Assembly (NCBI GenBank): GCA_025544715.1
Contig: GCA_025544715.1_4109.2
Reading direction: 5' to 3' (one strand)
Length of the DNA: 64,000 bases
DNA from: Escherichia coli
GTDB lineage: Bacteria; Pseudomonadota; Gammaproteobacteria; Enterobacterales; Enterobacteriaceae
The position numbers were made by a program, and so were the translations under genes. Shown piece after piece: positions 13,647 to 40,469 of this stretch (its first letter is position 1; each line of letters opens with the position of its first letter). The notes under the pieces were generated by a model. The model did no database searches. It was not told where the DNA came from and worked only from the letters and a program-made list of their open reading frames with translations.

Positions 13647-13908
13647 AGAGTGATTCAATCTCCGCTTTAAGAATGGAAATGATCTCTTTCTGAAGGCCAG
13701 TAATTTCACTGTTCAAAGATGATAGTCGCTTCGATAATGCCATGAATTGCTTTGCATCTTCTTTAGAACGGTCATTTCGTACTTTATCAGAACTCCAGTT
13801 AGCATATGATTGCTCATCTTTCCTGTTAAGGATATCCCAGTCTAAACGTACTAGTTTACGTTCTTTCTTCAGTTCGCTTAAGCGAGATTTCATTTCTTCT
13901 TTAGTCAT
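13639..13908 (-). CDS. hypothetical protein, charged and helical
   Basis: 89-aa ORF rich in K/E/R. Confidence 0.45.
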   Translation of the reverse strand: MTKEEMKSRLSELKKERKLVRLDWDILNRKDEQSYANWSSDKVRNDRSKEDAKQFMALSKRLSSLNSEITGLQKEIISILKAEIESLYE

Positions 13909-14198
13909 TAGATTGTTCCTTTCATGAAGTCTGGAATAACGATTACGATAGGAGGATTATACTCTACATAACCATTTTTTGTCAATAGACTTTTAATATC
14001 TGAAATCACATTATCATGCTGTTCAATATCTTTATCACAAAAGATTTCCAATTCTTTCTGAAACGGTTTTTTAACCGAGATGTTTTGAGTCAGTGTTTGG
14101 ATTCTCTGTAACATATCAATTGGATCTGGACTGAACTCATTACCAACATAAAGAGTACCAGATGCATCTTTTTCTAGCAAGACTTCTAAAATTTTCAT
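13908..14198 (-). CDS. hypothetical protein
   Basis: 96-aa ORF. Confidence 0.45.
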   Translation of the reverse strand: MKILEVLLEKDASGTLYVGNEFSPDPIDMLQRIQTLTQNISVKKPFQKELEIFCDKDIEQHDNVISDIKSLLTKNGYVEYNPPIVIVIPDFMKGTI

Positions 14199-15031
14199 TT
14201 CTTATCCTTCAATTTACTAAAGTTTTCTCGTGTAAATCCAGGAACTGGAAAATATACATCACAGTCAACATCAGGATTAATAATTACCATGTCATTACAT
14301 ATTATATCACGAATTTTACTACCGTCCACGATTTTTTGCATTAAATCATTCCATTTTTTACGAGAAATGACGAATGTACTAATTATACATAAATCATGTC
14401 CACGTTTTGAAATATATCCTAATACTTCATTATCGTAAACAACACGTATAGTAACTTTTCCAATTGTTACCCCTCTTACTGGATTAATACTAGTATCTTC
14501 AAAAATTAATTCTAATTTAAGTTTACCATTTGAAATAAGTGATGAAGTATATTTAGAAACCATTTTATCAATTTCTTGAGTCAAATCATCTCTACCTAGA
14601 TATTCAAATACCGAATAAGTTAATTCGTCTGCACATAACTGTTGGATAGTTGGAAGCTGGGCAACCATATCTAAAGATACAGGTTCGATATATATTCTTT
14701 CAATATCAGACGATTGTACAAATAGACAACCATCAGGTGTCGTATCTCTAACAATTTCGGCATAATATGTATAAAGATAAAAAACATTAGACTCTGATGA
14801 GTCAGTTTCTACCCAAATCTCAGATTGTTTCATTTCATCTTTATGAAGAATTCGTTGAGTAAATCCTATGTAAAAACCAAGATATAAATCATCATCAGTT
14901 TCAAACGGATTAAACATCAAATACGGATATTTGTCAAGGTACTCATTGAACTTACGCTGCACATCTCTATCACAATCCATGATATACTTTCGGAATTCAG
15001 AAATGATTATTTTTTCTAATGACATAATCAA
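14195..15031 (-). CDS. hypothetical protein
   Basis: 278-aa ORF; no recognisable motif. Confidence 0.55.
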   Translation of the reverse strand: MIMSLEKIIISEFRKYIMDCDRDVQRKFNEYLDKYPYLMFNPFETDDDLYLGFYIGFTQRILHKDEMKQSEIWVETDSSESNVFYLYTYYAEIVRDTTPDGCLFVQSSDIERIYIEPVSLDMVAQLPTIQQLCADELTYSVFEYLGRDDLTQEIDKMVSKYTSSLISNGKLKLELIFEDTSINPVRGVTIGKVTIRVVYDNEVLGYISKRGHDLCIISTFVISRKKWNDLMQKIVDGSKIRDIICNDMVIINPDVDCDVYFPVPGFTRENFSKLKDKK

Positions 15032-34526: not shown

Positions 34527-35171
34527 TTATTTGTAATATTTACCTAGTACTGAATAAATTTTCAATCTAAGATCTGTCCAATTCTCAATGTATTCAAAAT
34601 TACCAGTGTTCTTATACATTGAATTATGAGAACATCCCATCATAACTGACGGAATACCAAGTCCCATTGCAGTTTCAATATTATTGATATAATCATCAAT
34701 CATAAGTTTTACATCATATCTAGACTGTAAATCCTCTAGTGCTTGTTTCTTTGATTCGTTCATTTCGATAATAATAATCTCATCAAAACAGTTTTCACCA
34801 AATTCACGCATTAGGTTTACATTACGTAAAACTTCTCCATAACCTTTTTTGCCACATTTTGTTAGTACTACAAATTTTTCTTTATGAAAACGATCACGTA
34901 GCTCTTGTACAATATCAACTGTATTAGGTTCGACTGGTTTTAACAACCCAAACAAATATGATTGTTGGTTGAATTGTTCAAGAATTTTTTTAACTTCTTG
35001 TTGGGGGACACCCAACCAATCGGATAAATCATATTCTAATGGGTATGGTGTTGATGGTGTGATATTATAAGTTTGTTTTACGAACTCAGAAAGCATACCC
35101 ATATGGTCCAATAGAACTTCATCACAATCAAAAACTATACAACGTGGTTTCATTACATGTTCCCCGAACAA
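34527..35171 (-). CDS. HAD-superfamily hydrolase, putative 5'-nucleotidase
   Basis: N-terminal FDCDEVLLD (DxDx[TV] motif I) and later MIDDY aspartate motif. Confidence 0.55.
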   Translation of the reverse strand: MFGEHVMKPRCIVFDCDEVLLDHMGMLSEFVKQTYNITPSTPYPLEYDLSDWLGVPQQEVKKILEQFNQQSYLFGLLKPVEPNTVDIVQELRDRFHKEKFVVLTKCGKKGYGEVLRNVNLMREFGENCFDEIIIIEMNESKKQALEDLQSRYDVKLMIDDYINNIETAMGLGIPSVMMGCSHNSMYKNTGNFEYIENWTDLRLKIYSVLGKYYK

Positions 35172-36142
35172 ATTAGGTCAATCTCGCACAGAAGTGCACT
35201 GAGATTCATTTCACGGTCAGATACAGTTGCTTGTTTTACAACAGCATCACGAATCTTAACCTTGATTTTCATAAGAGTAATTTCATCAGTACTGAACATT
35301 TCAGCATTACGATACAGATAAGAAAAGAATGCATCCATCTCATCATCAGGGATATTTTGTACAATTTGTTCACGCATTTGGCGAATGTTTCCTGCCTTTA
35401 ATGCTTCAACAATTGCAGTACGATACCCTGCTGAATTTTCAATACTATCTTCAAGTTTTACTAGCTTACCATCAACAACTGAACTTTGCAATACGTTTAG
35501 TGTTTTACGGAAATCAGGATAGGAAGCATTGATATACTTTTGAACTTGTTCAACACTATCATCACTACTCAAATCAACACCTTCTGCTAGAAGAATATTA
35601 TAAATTCGAGTCATGAATTGTTCCATATCATGCTTTTCAATTGTAATAACTTGAACACGAGAAATGATAGGTTTTTGAATTTTATGTGGTTCGTTACTTG
35701 TTAAAATAAAGCGAGCGTTTTCATGGTAGTCTTCCATTACACGTTTCAAACTACCTTGTGCTTTATGGTTCATCTGCTCCATTTCTTCAAGAACAAAGAT
35801 ACGATACCTACCAAAACATGATAACTTTGCTGCGGCATCGATTTTATCACGAACTGCATCAATACCCTCATCTGACATGTTAAGTGTAGTTACATCACTT
35901 GGGTCAAGGTGTCCATTCTGTACCAATCCATTAATGAGAACTTTGATCGCAGATGTTTTACCAGTTCCTGCTGGGCCAAAAAACCCAATATGTGGAATGT
36001 CACCAGTTTTAATCCATTCTTCCATTTTCTGGCGTAGTGCATCATTTTTTGATACATAATCTTCCATTGATTGTGGGCGATATTTTTCAGTCCATAGTGT
36101 GGTCATTTTTATTTCCTTATGTGTACGTGTTATAGAATCCAA
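35153..36142 (-). CDS. 44: sliding-clamp loader large subunit (T4 gp44 / RFC-like AAA+ ATPase)
   Basis: RFC box WTEKYRP, Walker A GPAGTGKTS, overall collinear with T4 gp44 as recalled. Confidence 0.85.
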   Translation of the reverse strand: MDSITRTHKEIKMTTLWTEKYRPQSMEDYVSKNDALRQKMEEWIKTGDIPHIGFFGPAGTGKTSAIKVLINGLVQNGHLDPSDVTTLNMSDEGIDAVRDKIDAAAKLSCFGRYRIFVLEEMEQMNHKAQGSLKRVMEDYHENARFILTSNEPHKIQKPIISRVQVITIEKHDMEQFMTRIYNILLAEGVDLSSDDSVEQVQKYINASYPDFRKTLNVLQSSVVDGKLVKLEDSIENSAGYRTAIVEALKAGNIRQMREQIVQNIPDDEMDAFFSYLYRNAEMFSTDEITLMKIKVKIRDAVVKQATVSDREMNLSALLCEIDLICSGNM

Positions 36143-36402
36143 TCGGCTGAATTATATAATAAAGCCGTGAAAAGTTCTTCTGTCATTTCCAATTGATTTA
36201 ATAAAAAATTAAAAGAATTTGCCTTATTTTTAATCCCAGTACTTTCAGCTTGGGCCGATGCAACTAATAAAACTTTAAACATATCATGTGAAACTTCATA
36301 TACATATTTTGTATTTTTTCTATCTTCAAACATGAATCTTCCGTTTTTTGATACTAATGTTACATCTTTGAAACTAAATTTTCCATCATCCGTTATCATC
36401 AA
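36130..36402 (-). CDS. hypothetical protein
   Basis: 90-aa ORF overlapping the start of the clamp-loader gene. Confidence 0.4.
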   Translation of the reverse strand: MMITDDGKFSFKDVTLVSKNGRFMFEDRKNTKYVYEVSHDMFKVLLVASAQAESTGIKNKANSFNFLLNQLEMTEELFTALLYNSADWIL

Positions 36403-36455
36403 AATGTGTCCAAATAAAAAGCCCAGATATTAATCCGAGCTTTAATTATATTTTA

Positions 36456-36782
36456 TCAACGTCCAAAGGTTAGCATTTTAGTGCGTGGGTCTTCATCAGA
36501 TACTAAACTAACAGCGGCAGGGTAATCAACTAGGTTTAGTTCAATACCATCAACCTCAATCGTTCTTGACCAACGACCATGATCAATTAAAATCCATTGA
36601 CCTTCTTTAATATCAGTAATGTCTTCGCCTACTGAATATACTTTAGCCCAGCGAGAACGAATACCTCTAATTTTACCGTCATCGTTTGTTAAAACGATTC
36701 CACCTGCTGTTTTGCGTTCACCATGTTCCAGTTCAGTGACTAGTACTTTACCTTTACATGCAGTCATTACTTTATTAGACAT
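36456..36782 (-). CDS. GroES-like co-chaperonin (Cpn10)
   Basis: GKVLVTELEHGERKTAGGIVLT parallels GroES [21 protein letters not shown]; 108 aa. Confidence 0.7.
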   Translation of the reverse strand: MSNKVMTACKGKVLVTELEHGERKTAGGIVLTNDDGKIRGIRSRWAKVYSVGEDITDIKEGQWILIDHGRWSRTIEVDGIELNLVDYPAAVSLVSDEDPRTKMLTFGR

Positions 36783-36790
36783 TTAATACA

Positions 36791-37135
36791 TTACTCCTGA
36801 TCTTTAGTTTTTGCTCGACGTGGGGCTTTCTTCTCTTCAGAAACCTCAGCTTCTTGTGATTCGGGCTTAACTTCAAAACTTTCATCATCCCATACTTCCT
36901 CAGAACTATGTTCAGTACTATGAAGTTGGTGTTCAGGGATATAATCAGGAATTTGCATTTCTCTTTCTTTTTCTTGTATCAACTCTTCACGAGTTTTGAT
37001 AATTGTTCCACCTGAACCAATTTTATCACCACGTGCGTTTAGATTAGCATTACCCAATGCTACCTGATGTTGATTTTGGTACTTGAGCATATCCATGTCA
37101 ATTGTTGTACCACGATAAGTTGTATGTTTAGACAT
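36791..37135 (-). CDS. hypothetical protein, acidic C-terminus
   Basis: 114-aa ORF. Confidence 0.45.
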   Translation of the reverse strand: MSKHTTYRGTTIDMDMLKYQNQHQVALGNANLNARGDKIGSGGTIIKTREELIQEKEREMQIPDYIPEHQLHSTEHSSEEVWDDESFEVKPESQEAEVSEEKKAPRRAKTKDQE

Positions 37136-37198
37136 ATCAAAATCCTTTTATTGTATGTGTGATATAAGCCTACAATAAACATTATATCACATGTTTTG

Positions 37199-37741
37199 CT
37201 ACCATTTCAAAAATTCATTAACATCGAGTTCGTATTTCAATGAATCTACCATGTGTAGACCAATCAAAAACAAACAGTATGATGCAACCGAGCTTCCACG
37301 CCCTAGACCCCAAAAGATCTCATTTTCTTCCATATAATCAACAAGCCATATCATACATCTTAATAGCTTTGTCATATTATAATATTCATATAAATCTAGT
37401 TCATACTCAACACGCTTTCGTGCTTCATCTGATGTACATTTTTGTAAGAAAAAGTCACGTAGATTTATATTGTCGTATACTGGATCATAACGCCAAAGTT
37501 CATGATTTTTATCATGCTCGATAGTATAATCCAGCATACGTTGTTCTAAGCCAAATTTTTTACAGTTATCATTGAATTTCAACCTTTCAGGTTCATCAAT
37601 TTCCTGCAATTGTAAGTACTGGATATCCGCACCGCAATTGATTGCATAAACTACTGCGTTAAGATTACATTTTACATCACCATTGGGACTTATAAATCTG
37701 TTTCCTTGTACTTTCATTTTTCTTTTTCTGGGCCTCTTCAT
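37199..37741 (-). CDS. hypothetical protein with a DnaE-palm-like GxGRGS segment
   Basis: C-terminal FWGLGRGSSVASYCLFLIGLHMVDSLKYELDVNEFL resembles E. coli DnaE [35 protein letters not shown] (from memory); ORF ends before the catalytic aspartates. Confidence 0.45.
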   Translation of the reverse strand: MKRPRKRKMKVQGNRFISPNGDVKCNLNAVVYAINCGADIQYLQLQEIDEPERLKFNDNCKKFGLEQRMLDYTIEHDKNHELWRYDPVYDNINLRDFFLQKCTSDEARKRVEYELDLYEYYNMTKLLRCMIWLVDYMEENEIFWGLGRGSSVASYCLFLIGLHMVDSLKYELDVNEFLKW

Positions 37742-37988
37742 TGTCAGTTAGATAAGAATCCATGTCGAAGATACATGAGTCTTCTTCATCATAAACAGAT
37801 TTTTCTTTTTGTCCTTGACGAAGTTCTAGTTCAGCATAACATTGATTTAACACAGTTTGCATATTACCAATAATCATATCACTCATACCAGCGGCACGGG
37901 CTGAAGTTATACGCATTGACTGTTCATTAATTTTCAACTGTAGTTCTTTCTCCGTCATCCCAGACGGGTCAAAAAACGGATTAAACAT
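37677..37988 (-). CDS. hypothetical protein
   Basis: 103-aa ORF. Confidence 0.4.
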   Translation of the reverse strand: MFNPFFDPSGMTEKELQLKINEQSMRITSARAAGMSDMIIGNMQTVLNQCYAELELRQGQKEKSVYDEEDSCIFDMDSYLTDNEEAQKKKNESTRKQIYKSQW

Positions 37989-37989
37989 A

Positions 37990-40383
37990 TTAACCTCCTA
38001 TGTTATTGTTTTGCAATGTAATCACAAATGTATCTGGTACATAATTTACTGATTCATGTGAAAAGTACCCGAATTCGACAGATGTGATTTCAAACTCTAG
38101 ACCTACCATTGTACCATGTTCATTATTCTGAAGTAAAGTGTTGAAAAATGCTTCACCTTTACCTGGCTGACAAAATGCGACTGGGATAATAGGCATGAAT
38201 TTTTTCTGTATACCATCTTCAATGTATGGGTGATTCATAAATCTTGGAACGGTATCAAGCATTTCATCGCTGATACTTGGTATAGCATCAACGTATAGAC
38301 CACGATTTTGTAAATCAGTTGGATCTTTTACCAAGTTTGTTGTGTCTTCACCAATAGCTTGAAAGATATTTTGACGTAGACCAAACAGTTCACCAAGCTG
38401 ACCATTATCTATTTGAGTATACATACGAGGATTTTTGGATACAGATACTAAAGAACCTTCAGGTAAAACTTCTCTATATAATAAATCATATTGCAAATTG
38501 CCTTGATTGTCAAGTGCTGATATCAATTTATAATTACCCATTACCATTTTAAATTTTCCATTTGGTATAGTAGAGCCATTTGGATTAATGATACTATTTC
38601 GTAATACTTTTTTGATATCCGAAAGATTAGTATATGGGTACGTTTGACTTAGAAAGTTTTCTTTCAATAACATCCTAGGAACTTTCTGAAGACCATACCT
38701 ATTATCAGATTGACGGAAAAAAAGTTGATTAGTAAATGATGAAGTACTGATACATTTAAACCACTCTCGCTCAAATGCAACAGACGGTAGTACATGTGCA
38801 CTCAAATAATTCTGACCGAACCCTCTTACAATCTTAAGGTTAAATATTTTCCTTGCTTCGCCACCTTCAGTACTAAATGCTTTAACATAAAACGATAGTT
38901 TAATGTCATCGTTTTCACTAAAGTCAATACTTTTGGCATATGCAGTTCCAACAAGATATCCGTCAGGTGTCAAATCTATTCCATACTTCCTAATATCATC
39001 ACCACCATCTAAAACATACGAAACCTGATTTGAACTATCAGTTTCTATTCTAGGATAGGTACTGTCTCCAAAATATTCACCAACATGTATAGTTCCTAAA
39101 TCACTATCAGTAACAAAGTTTATATTATTACCTTCTTCAGCGTTAATCAAAACCCTGAACATTTTCTGCATACCAATGATATTATCACCAAGAGTAGAGT
39201 CATAATATCCCAAATCAATCCAATCACTACTATCATAAACTGGTTTAATTGACCCATTGTCGTACTCACCACTAATCACATAGGGATATACAACGTTATC
39301 TTTTAATTGATATAAATGATTCGGTAGTGGTTTGTCTGCTATAGAATATATAGTGTCAATATCTTCAGGACAAACCCACATTTGATATGCCTTATATCTT
39401 TGATTGATAGCAAACCTTTCGCTTTCTTCTGTGTATGTACTTAATATATCAACAATTTCAACTTTGAAATATGCATCACACGCATCTGAATCATATAAAA
39501 ATGTTTGTAGTAATTGTCCATTAGGGTTAAAAACCATACCTGAATCAATTAAATTACCATTTCTATTTTGAATATTAACTTTTACTTCTTTGTTTATGCC
39601 AGAAATAGGCCATGTTGGTTGTGCTGGTTTAAATACGGCATAATCATTAGTAATATGTTTATCTGGAACTTCAGATATATCCATGTCAATCAAACGATAT
39701 GCAGGAAAGAATACACGAGGGGTAATATCGGTAGTCATGTCAGTACCGAGTATAAAAGGTCTTCTTCTCCCAAACCCTTGAACAAACAATGTACTGTTCG
39801 AACCATACTCAACATCACCAATACAATAAAGTTTTTTGTCATCACCAATCTCAACTCCAGGTGTAACCCAAACTTCCTGACTATCATATGTTATTGAAGT
39901 ATCTGTTAATCCTAAAACTCCACTTGGTGAAATATTCCCAAAATACATAACATTTACTGCTTGTAAATAAAAATTTATATTTTCAGTATTATTATATGTT
40001 CCGTCATTTTTACAATGAATTTTTATAAAATAAACATCTTCAGTATTAGTACTTGAGGATAAGTTAAATTCTGTTTTGCTAATCTTACACTTATGCTTAC
40101 CATTTACTAGTTTATTTCCAGTTGTTCCATCTGAAATAGGAATAAAACTATTTTCGTCATTACCAACATAAAAAGTATAATGTGGTTCTGGATCAAATAC
40201 AGCACCTGAACTATCCAAGCATTGTATATTAAGAATCATCTCTAAGTATTCATCTTCGTTTAATACATAGCTATCATCCGTTGTGCTTTCTTTATTGATA
40301 CTCAAACGCACAAGAATGTCTTGTCCTTCTTGTATATATCGAGCATCGGCTTTTATATCCCAACGTGGGGTAAAAGTTGTCAT
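37990..40383 (-). CDS. late-expressed large protein, probable virion component
   Basis: Track ORF 37990-40410; start moved to ATG at 40381-40383 with GGAG RBS; T4-type late promoter TATAAATA ~40 nt upstream; no enzymatic motif recognised. Confidence 0.6.
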   Translation of the reverse strand: MTTFTPRWDIKADARYIQEGQDILVRLSINKESTTDDSYVLNEDEYLEMILNIQCLDSSGAVFDPEPHYTFYVGNDENSFIPISDGTTGNKLVNGKHKCKISKTEFNLSSSTNTEDVYFIKIHCKNDGTYNNTENINFYLQAVNVMYFGNISPSGVLGLTDTSITYDSQEVWVTPGVEIGDDKKLYCIGDVEYGSNSTLFVQGFGRRRPFILGTDMTTDITPRVFFPAYRLIDMDISEVPDKHITNDYAVFKPAQPTWPISGINKEVKVNIQNRNGNLIDSGMVFNPNGQLLQTFLYDSDACDAYFKVEIVDILSTYTEESERFAINQRYKAYQMWVCPEDIDTIYSIADKPLPNHLYQLKDNVVYPYVISGEYDNGSIKPVYDSSDWIDLGYYDSTLGDNIIGMQKMFRVLINAEEGNNINFVTDSDLGTIHVGEYFGDSTYPRIETDSSNQVSYVLDGGDDIRKYGIDLTPDGYLVGTAYAKSIDFSENDDIKLSFYVKAFSTEGGEARKIFNLKIVRGFGQNYLSAHVLPSVAFEREWFKCISTSSFTNQLFFRQSDNRYGLQKVPRMLLKENFLSQTYPYTNLSDIKKVLRNSIINPNGSTIPNGKFKMVMGNYKLISALDNQGNLQYDLLYREVLPEGSLVSVSKNPRMYTQIDNGQLGELFGLRQNIFQAIGEDTTNLVKDPTDLQNRGLYVDAIPSISDEMLDTVPRFMNHPYIEDGIQKKFMPIIPVAFCQPGKGEAFFNTLLQNNEHGTMVGLEFEITSVEFGYFSHESVNYVPDTFVITLQNNNIGG

Positions 40384-40430: not shown

Positions 40431-40447
40431 AAAGGACAAGGAAGACC

Positions 40448-40469
40448 CAGTAAGGTCTTCCATAAAATA
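40448..40469 (-). terminator. terminator hairpin
   Basis: Perfect 8-bp stem GGAAGACC/GGTCTTCC with 6-nt loop, immediately after the gp52-like gene. Confidence 0.45.

Follow-up and report, generated by a model that had tools for sequence, protein, structure and literature searches.

A small gene of the jumbo phage 121Q as the probable N-terminal half of a split, minimal DNA polymerase III alpha

Gene 56 of phage 121Q

The stretch of DNA analysed here, which we call the window, comprises 64,000 nucleotides (nt) of contig GCA_025544715.1_4109.2, filed under Escherichia coli, and our subject is a small open reading frame (ORF) at 37199..37741 of its minus strand, together with a distant partner gene. 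Positions 36000-39000 of the window share 99.9% identity with Escherichia phage 121Q (NC_025447/KM507819, genus Asteriusvirus), a Rak2-like jumbo myovirus of 348.5 kb, and the window as a whole is the reverse complement of positions 17974-81973 of the 121Q record. The ORF, which does run for 180 amino acids (aa) from its first ATG as initially annotated, is gene 56 of this phage (YP_009101650) and carries the existing annotation 'DNA polymerase / DNA polymerase III alpha subunit'.

Conservation does not extend to the first ATG, at 37741, in whose place PBECO4 has AAC and which is absent from RaK2, CBB and Yen9-04. The second methionine is the start in all annotated orthologues, which come from four other genera, and in the PHROG profile. 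The real coding sequence of gene 56 is therefore 37199..37717 on the minus strand (172 aa and the stop codon), as in the 121Q record, and the eight extra codons of the longest ORF (37718..37741, minus strand) are probably untranslated. According to the matches to PHROG 11127 and PF07733 and to the evidence given below, this coding sequence represents the N-terminal half of a split minimal Pol III alpha (DnaE), and we refer to it as the N-half.

Three regions can be distinguished in the protein, all encoded on the minus strand. Residues 100-172 (37202..37420) hold the core homology to the DnaE palm, corresponding to about 320-394 of E. coli DnaE, and end in EFLKW. Within this core the sequence reads as the GS nucleotide (triphosphate)-binding loop of the Pol-beta-like nucleotidyltransferase fold, G137-L-G-R-G-S-S143 (37289..37309), which by alignment is equivalent to G359-P-G-R-G-S364 of E. 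coli DnaE. Residues 58-99 (37421..37546) form a weaker extension of the palm homology, at DnaE model positions of about 280-320; they are aligned by NCBIfam and not recovered by Pfam or hhalign. Residues 1-57 (37547..37717) are, judging from profiles and the AlphaFold2 (AF2) model, a family-specific N-terminal region standing in place of the PHP domain. This region has no match among Pfam and NCBIfam profiles and no detectable homologue, is weakly conserved in an alignment of 30 diverse homologues, and is modelled as two short strands and two helices with a predicted local distance difference test score (pLDDT) of 65-88. No PHP domain was matched in gene 56 by Pfam or NCBIfam, and just these 57 residues stand ahead of the palm homology.

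The relation to DnaE is supported by several independent comparisons. The match to PHROG 11127 covers the whole profile, with positions 1-171 of 171 on residues 9-179 of the 180-aa ORF (E 3.5e-87). Pfam PF07733 (DNA_pol3_alpha) scores 37.8 bits, above its gathering score of 23.9 (E 2.1e-9), and the best of the NCBIfam DnaE models reaches E 1.6e-8, with residues 58-170 on model positions 280-389; its score of 32.7 bits is far under the equivalog cut-off of 1260. Alignment of the gene 56 family to a DnaE alignment by hhalign gave a probability of 96.1% (E 3.5e-9). When the family profile was compared with PDB sequences, the best nine matches were all Pol III alpha, with positions 100-172 on E. 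coli DnaE 320-392; a strict search of PDB sequences with the N-half alignment (E<=0.01) returned no match, and the relaxed run returned DnaE matches at E~0.013. The AF2 model (pLDDT 84.6) has only DnaE and PolC among its top nine Foldseek matches.

These comparisons bear out the initial annotation, which had taken the C-terminal ~60 residues for a likeness of the GxGRGS palm segment: about 73 residues align to E. coli DnaE 320-392, the E. coli string given there agrees with the actual dnaE translation, and the profile and structural similarity to Pol III alpha that it asked about is significant. It had also left room for a coincidental motif in an unrelated protein, for which nothing speaks but the shortness of the matched region; the Pfam, NCBIfam and hhalign results already refute this explanation, which we regard as the most improbable of those discussed here.

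The stop of the ORF ahead of the catalytic aspartates was noted correctly as well. The C-terminus ...NEFLKW corresponds to ...ERFLN(393) of E. coli DnaE, seven residues ahead of P400-D401-F-D403, and all members of the N-half family end at EFLK. Across the 30 diverse homologues G137, G139, R140, G141, S142, S143, V144 and S146 are invariant. With respect to C-family membership, gene 56 thus has the GxGRGS palm segment, and the equivalents of D401, D403 and D555 are not on the same polypeptide.

Gene 16, the probable partner, carries the aspartates

Inside the window, where the partner was also sought, the large ORFs are ribonucleotide reductase, Dda helicase and structural proteins. The next DnaE element after the end of gene 56 is found in gene 16 of 121Q (NC_025447 13282-13920, 212 aa), on the same strand and 30.3 kb away, annotated merely as 'DNA polymerase'. 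Since it lies about 4 kb past the right edge of the window, it could not be seen in the initial annotation. Its N-terminal sequence, MQDSTDSKHYRKARTDIDIDF, reaches the motif TDIDIDF, and many homologues of this protein, which we call the C-half, start directly with M-DIDIDF.

Among 30 diverse homologues of gene 16, residues D16, D18, D20, H48, G51, K80, D82, R149, P150, K152, K187, H190 and Y194 are invariant. D16 and D18 are the counterparts of D401 and D403 of E. coli DnaE, H48 of H511, and K80 and D82 of K553 and D555, so that D16, D18 and D82 make up the catalytic triad. The RPGP motif (R149-P150, E. coli R639-P640) and the NKSH..Y motif (K188-H190-Y194) are retained too.

When the C-half family profile was compared with PDB sequences, all seven matches at E<=10 were Pol III alpha (best E 0.019). 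On Mycobacterium tuberculosis DnaE1 it aligns in four collinear pieces: 412-424, SMPDIDIDFDDRR (PDIDIDF); 484-526, which is very weak (0.6 bits); 568-673 (GLLKMDFLGL ... ALYRPGP); and 766-787 (FNKSHAAGY). By hhalign the C-half matches DnaE with a probability of 76.7% (E 2.1e-5). The AF2 model of gene 16 (pLDDT 92.8, predicted template-modelling score 0.80) has as its 13 best PDB matches only DnaE structures, of Taq, M. tuberculosis and E. coli, with probabilities of 0.9-1.0 for the first eleven of them and 0.44-1.00 overall; what comes after is noise. Pfam gives a sub-threshold finger-domain match (E 0.045) and NCBIfam none. The assignment of gene 16 as the missing part of DnaE leans on its collinear motifs and on the predicted fold.

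The same Pfam and NCBIfam results account for the usual labels of the C-half, which is a 'putative membrane protein' in several genomes (CBB_287, L023:568-1218; the orthologues in GAP32 and an Erwinia phage) while most genomes call it a 'hypothetical protein'. Neither Pfam nor NCBIfam has a model for this family, and the gap in annotation is a systematic one.

Anatomy of the split

Taken together, the two proteins place the break at one defined point. The N-half ends at EFLK and the C-half opens at the DxD strand, with just the short NPERxxxP linker of DnaE absent between them. Mapped onto the Pol-beta-like fold, the chain is divided past the helix that comes after the GS loop and ahead of the strand with the first two carboxylates, which puts the triphosphate-binding loop on one polypeptide and the metal ligands on the other. 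All three elements of a Pol-beta-like nucleotidyltransferase, namely the GS loop of gene 56 and the DIDID and K-V-D motifs of gene 16, are invariant and are spread over two proteins. An intein with trans-splicing was considered as an explanation of this arrangement and dismissed, on the ground that no additional sequence is present at the junction in either half.

Genes 56 and 16 add up to 384 aa. The C-half ends 18 residues past the KK.H..Y motif, and the beta-clamp motif and the HhH, OB and tau-binding regions are absent. A six-frame ORF scan of the 121Q genome recovered exactly one N-half and one C-half. A full-length DnaE profile, built from three sequences, found the N-half and no other DnaE-like piece (PHP-like ones included) among the six-frame ORFs of 121Q; it also missed the C-half, and so is too weak to prove the absence of other DnaE domains.

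Distribution and selection

Both halves were compared by tblastn with 50,697 phage genomes. The N-half was found in 120 phage records, about 25 of them with an ordinary full-length DnaE of Streptomyces and Bacillus phages, and the C-half in 96. By host genus, the numbers of N-half and C-half records are 34 and 34 for Escherichia phages, 11 and 11 for Pseudomonas, 8 and 8 for Salmonella, 8 and 8 for Erwinia, 4 and 4 for Xanthomonas, 4 and 4 for Yersinia, and 10 and 11 for Klebsiella, where the additional record is a partial genome. The two halves thus co-occur across Rak2-like, PA5oct-like and other jumbo phages. Within a genome they are separated by 14.7-182 kb: 30 kb in 121Q, 34 kb in RaK2, 44 kb in PA5oct, 15 kb in the Stenotrophomonas phage CM1 and 182 kb in Atu_ph07.

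In large protein databases the best 120 of 176 N-half matches are 171-187 aa long, obvious fragments aside, and the best 120 of 796 C-half matches 157-220 aa. An exhaustive profile search collected at least 481 N-half clusters (50% identity, E<=1e-30). The top 150 of them, all of 156-196 aa, include none of the longer, intact homologues suggested for related phages in the initial annotation, and in nearly all the match reaches within a few residues of the C-terminus. Around the C-half of 80 viral contigs, in flanks of 995 kb altogether, no N-half was found, and no C-half ORF exceeded 246 codons from stop to stop; no C-half lay within 10 kb of the N-half in four distinct distant contigs (five loci). 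Fused or longer homologues were found neither among these 120 and 150 N-half matches and 120 C-half matches nor in the 80 viral contigs. Uniform lengths, a shared break point and wide separation indicate that the split is ancient and stable, and not an accident of 121Q.

The possibility of a polymerase fragment, raised initially for gene 56, holds in so far as the protein is part of a polymerase; it is not a truncated or broken gene, being a subunit of a conserved two-gene split. A related explanation is that an ancestral full-length phage dnaE was broken up by rearrangement and that genes 56 and 16 are what is left of it, decaying and without function, which would agree with the loss of most DnaE domains and with the distance between the pieces. 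The ratio of nonsynonymous to synonymous substitution rates (dN/dS) was estimated by the Nei-Gojobori method on codon alignments from five genera. Of the differences between 121Q and PBECO4, 20 are synonymous and none nonsynonymous in the N-half, against 20 and 1 in the C-half, which makes 40 against 1 for the pair; comparisons between genera give a dN/dS of 0.05-0.15 for either half, and dN is similar in the two. Such strong purifying selection on both halves rules out pseudogene remnants. The catalytic motifs are moreover invariant, and hundreds of divergent clusters keep a uniform length and an identical break point; we consider decay highly improbable.

A regulatory role was also proposed initially for gene 56, as a mimic or decoy of the host DnaE palm which would bind a replisome partner of host or phage without catalysis and independently of gene 16. 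It is true that gene 56 lacks catalytic carboxylates of its own and that its family-specific first 57 residues could be an interaction module. However, it does not have those regions of DnaE that are known to contact epsilon (PHP) and beta or tau (the C-terminus), its most invariant residues form the nucleotide-binding loop (G137, G139-S143), for which a mimic has no need, and the partner that co-occurs with it begins at the very next DnaE element. A mimic therefore appears very unlikely to us.

Gene context of the two halves

Gene 55 (37677..37988, minus strand; 103 aa, unknown function, PHROG 15348) overlaps the start of the N-half by 41 nt, and both this overlap and the gene order are kept in PBECO4, RaK2, CBB and Yersinia phage Yen9-04. 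The downstream neighbour is gene 57 (36791..37135, minus strand; 114 aa, unknown function, PHROG 14844), after which comes gene 58 (36456..36782, minus strand), annotated as a GroES/gp31-like co-chaperonin. In the distant metagenomic contigs L013 (E 1.2e-14) and L015 a homologue of gene 57 stands directly 3' of the N-half, and in L012 there is one close by; homologues of gene 58 occupy the same place in L013 (E 2.6e-23) and L015, the N-half and genes 57 and 58 forming a conserved trio in Rak2-like and distant metagenomic phages. About 1 kb downstream of the N-half lies gene 60 (35153..36106, minus strand), annotated as a clamp-loader AAA+ subunit (T4 gp44-like), whose homologue is found about 2 kb downstream of the N-half in L013, a contig of 327 kb (E 1.9e-58). 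The order conserved in Rak2-like phages is the structural gene 54, gene 55, the N-half, gene 57, the GroES-like gene 58, gene 59 and the clamp-loader gene 60.

Two terminator-like hairpins, both on the minus strand, were picked up by a consensus scan, one upstream of gene 54 (40440..40461) and one after gene 58 (36418..36443); they are the likely 5' and 3' boundaries of a unit of genes 54-58, and the count of such terminator-like sites is no higher than in shuffled sequence. The bracketing hairpins suggest that the N-half may be transcribed together with gene 54 and not with the topoisomerase or clamp-loader genes next to it. The promoter scan was uninformative overall (31 sites against 31.3 expected). 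The 63-nt spacer between genes 56 and 57 contains two nested perfect inverted repeats (37158-37167/37182-37191 and 37147-37155/37171-37179), and a near-consensus extended -10 promoter-like site, TTGAAA-18-TATAAT with TG, is seen just 5' of gene 57 at 37210-37181 (minus strand).

The C-half belongs to a block that runs through SSB, UvsX, UvsY, a DnaQ-like exonuclease, UvsW, genes 11-14, gene 15, the C-half, the convergent gene 17, gene 18, primase and a gp41-type helicase. The helicases, the primase and genes 12, 13, 14 and 17 follow the same order in three distant contigs (L025-L027), and the SSB, RecA and exonuclease genes are present only in some of these. According to the annotation, 121Q also possesses a family B polymerase (gene 610, gp43-like) along with gp32, UvsX, UvsY, UvsW, gp41, gp44 and gp23.

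Several neighbours deserve mention in their own right. Genes 12, 13, 14 and 17 (L008:10940-12978 and 13907-14260), which have no known function, lie around the C-half, bounded by the UvsW-type helicase and by the primase and helicase genes, and may be unrecognised replisome components, for instance analogues of the clamp, of the clamp-loader small subunit or of the helicase loader, which are listed as missing in BLAST-based papers. Gene 9 (L008:8128-8946) encodes a stand-alone DnaQ/RNase_T-type exonuclease of 272 aa which adjoins UvsW, as it does in a Vibrio jumbo phage (L026); since the family B polymerase has an exonuclease of its own, gp9 is a candidate for proofreading after the minimal Pol III. 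Elsewhere in 121Q, the annotation tables give a tandem array of about 14 paralogues called RCC1-like 'regulator of chromosome condensation' (genes 234-248, L002:35116-49282), and those for L003 give long runs of paralogue-sized ORFs of ~60-75 aa.

Proposed function

From the analysis above we think it probable, and hold with good confidence, that gene 56 encodes one of the two polypeptides, the N-terminal one, of a minimal C-family (DnaE-like) nucleotidyltransferase. We propose that gp56 and gp16 would assemble by fragment complementation and build a single Pol-beta-type active site across their interface, where the N-half would position the triphosphate of the incoming dNTP, the C-half would bind two Mg2+ ions and the primer/template, and the pair would catalyse nucleotidyl transfer on DNA. 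That one enzyme is reconstituted from the two units would agree with their joint occurrence in phage genomes, with the way their motifs complement each other and with the selection on both. The most likely role, in our opinion, would be that of an auxiliary DNA polymerase in replication, recombination or repair beside the T4-type family B polymerase of gene 610; the gene context is our reason for this suggestion, with the C-half in the SSB-UvsX-UvsY-DnaQ-UvsW-primase-helicase block and the N-half near the clamp loader.

A number of observations weigh against this proposal. The thumb is absent from the C-half, where ~25 residues separate the DxD strand from H48 in place of ~105 in E. coli (about 406-510). 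Also absent is the finger segment that in E. coli carries R709, R710, K714 and K715 (RRAMGKK), with 34 residues in place of 114 (E. coli 643-756); in DnaE this segment contributes to binding of the incoming dNTP. With both lost, templated and processive synthesis is not assured. The conserved residue at the position of E. coli R390 is a glutamate in the N-half (E168). The support for gene 16 from sequence is modest (PDB profile E 0.019, hhalign 77%, Pfam E 0.045), and the unit of the N-half opens with a virion structural gene, gene 54, without obvious replication context. The main uncertainty lies in the loss of the thumb and of RRxxGKK and in the change of R390 to Glu, with which the activity may be a non-canonical one.

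The two halves may, accordingly, form an active nucleotidyltransferase which is no templated DNA polymerase and which, like other minimal Pol-beta-fold enzymes, would serve in untemplated addition, primer extension or synthesis, DNA end modification or the making of a nucleotide-derived small molecule. In addition to the deleted thumb and finger segment, such a function would agree with a total of only 384 aa, with the lack of PHP, clamp-binding, HhH or OB parts among those found in the 121Q genome, and with a complete T4-type family B replicase already being held by the phage. Against it speak the finger motifs that are kept and invariant, RP.K and KK.H..Y, which in DnaE belong to the fingers that bind DNA and dNTP, as well as the position of the C-half inside the conserved SSB-UvsX-DnaQ-UvsW...primase-helicase block in distant lineages and of the N-half beside the clamp loader; neither half matches a PADLOC defence family. 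We judge this explanation unlikely, with a small chance of being correct.

A more specific version, which we offer tentatively and with low confidence, is that gp56 and gp16 form an obligate heterodimer whose interface-spanning site, in an enzyme without thumb and index finger, would perform a specialised nucleotidyl transfer and not the work of a conventional replicase; a location of the halves in modules of different regulation would gate its activity in time, and it would be the smallest functioning core of a C-family polymerase. Candidates for such a transfer might be extension of primers or 3' ends in recombination-dependent replication, possibly proofread by gp9, or non-templated addition.

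Should the pair prove active, it would be by far the smallest polymerase of the C family, with 384 aa in two chains, and a rare example in which two polypeptides together provide the active site of a polymerase. It could be taken as a minimal model for the bacterial replicase fold and its evolution, and would speak for a second polymerase, of bacterial type, at work in T4-related jumbo phages beside the one of family B.

Comparison with known systems

Bacterial DnaE (E. coli b0184; PDB 2HNH and 5FKU) shares with the phage pair a homologous palm with GxGRGS, and the PDxDxDF, K-x-D, RPG and NKSH..Y motifs, which in the phage are supplied in trans. It has 1160 aa, whereas the pair has 384 aa in two polypeptides, without PHP or thumb, with truncated fingers, and without beta-binding, HhH, OB and tau-binding regions.

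In cyanobacteria such as Synechocystis, dnaE is split into two distant genes whose products, DnaE-N and DnaE-C, are joined through a split intein by protein trans-splicing to the full-length enzyme. The phage pair resembles this arrangement in that DnaE comes from two distant genes of one genome. It differs in having no intein-like sequence and in another break point, the N-half ending 1-2 residues past EFLK.

The same split point was suspected in other phages from PHROGs of ~460 aa and from a 'PHP domain-containing protein' of Bacillus phage PK-3; the DnaE of PK-3 turned out to be normal, with 1120 aa. Bacillus phage Edson (PV796108) was rejected as a further instance, because its dnaE is interrupted after the DxD motif and not before it. 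Like the phage pair, this gene has its interruption beside the catalytic DxD motif; unlike the pair, it breaks after PDVDTD, its pieces are contiguous with ~0.7 kb of unannotated DNA between them and are probably spliced, and the PHP domain and the rest of full-length DnaE are kept. In Edson (L029:2960-5120) the dnaE frame degenerates directly after PDVDTD, and ~735 nt of unannotated DNA are followed by more coding sequences. A group I intron, or some other mobile element inserted at the active site, is the probable cause of the interruption, and insertions of this kind could be a possible origin of the split in jumbo phages.

The closest system is one already described. Iyer, Anantharaman, Krishnan, Burroughs and Aravind (2021, Viruses 13:63; PMC7824862) reported, from comparative genomics, a 'minimal split DNA polymerase III alpha' in group 2.2 jumbo phages, with 121Q among the phages discussed, and proposed its cooperation with the family B enzyme. 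As in the 121Q pair, a stand-alone N-terminal NTP-binding unit is accompanied by a distant gene for the C-terminal Mg2+- and template-binding unit, and a family B polymerase is present alongside in a T4-related jumbo phage; we see no essential difference between the two, and the split was thus known since that description. The genome paper on CBB speaks of a 172-aa 'truncated' Pol III alpha, and some genome papers list the 172-aa protein as though it were a complete DnaE; our literature search for experimental follow-up to the split Pol III alpha turned up just the comparative paper of 2021. Our contribution is incremental to that paper and consists in the pair of genes 56 and 16 itself, the junction EFLK | DIDIDF, the deleted thumb and index-finger segments, the size of the family and its uniform length, the lack of fused or adjacent forms, the dN/dS values and the microsynteny.

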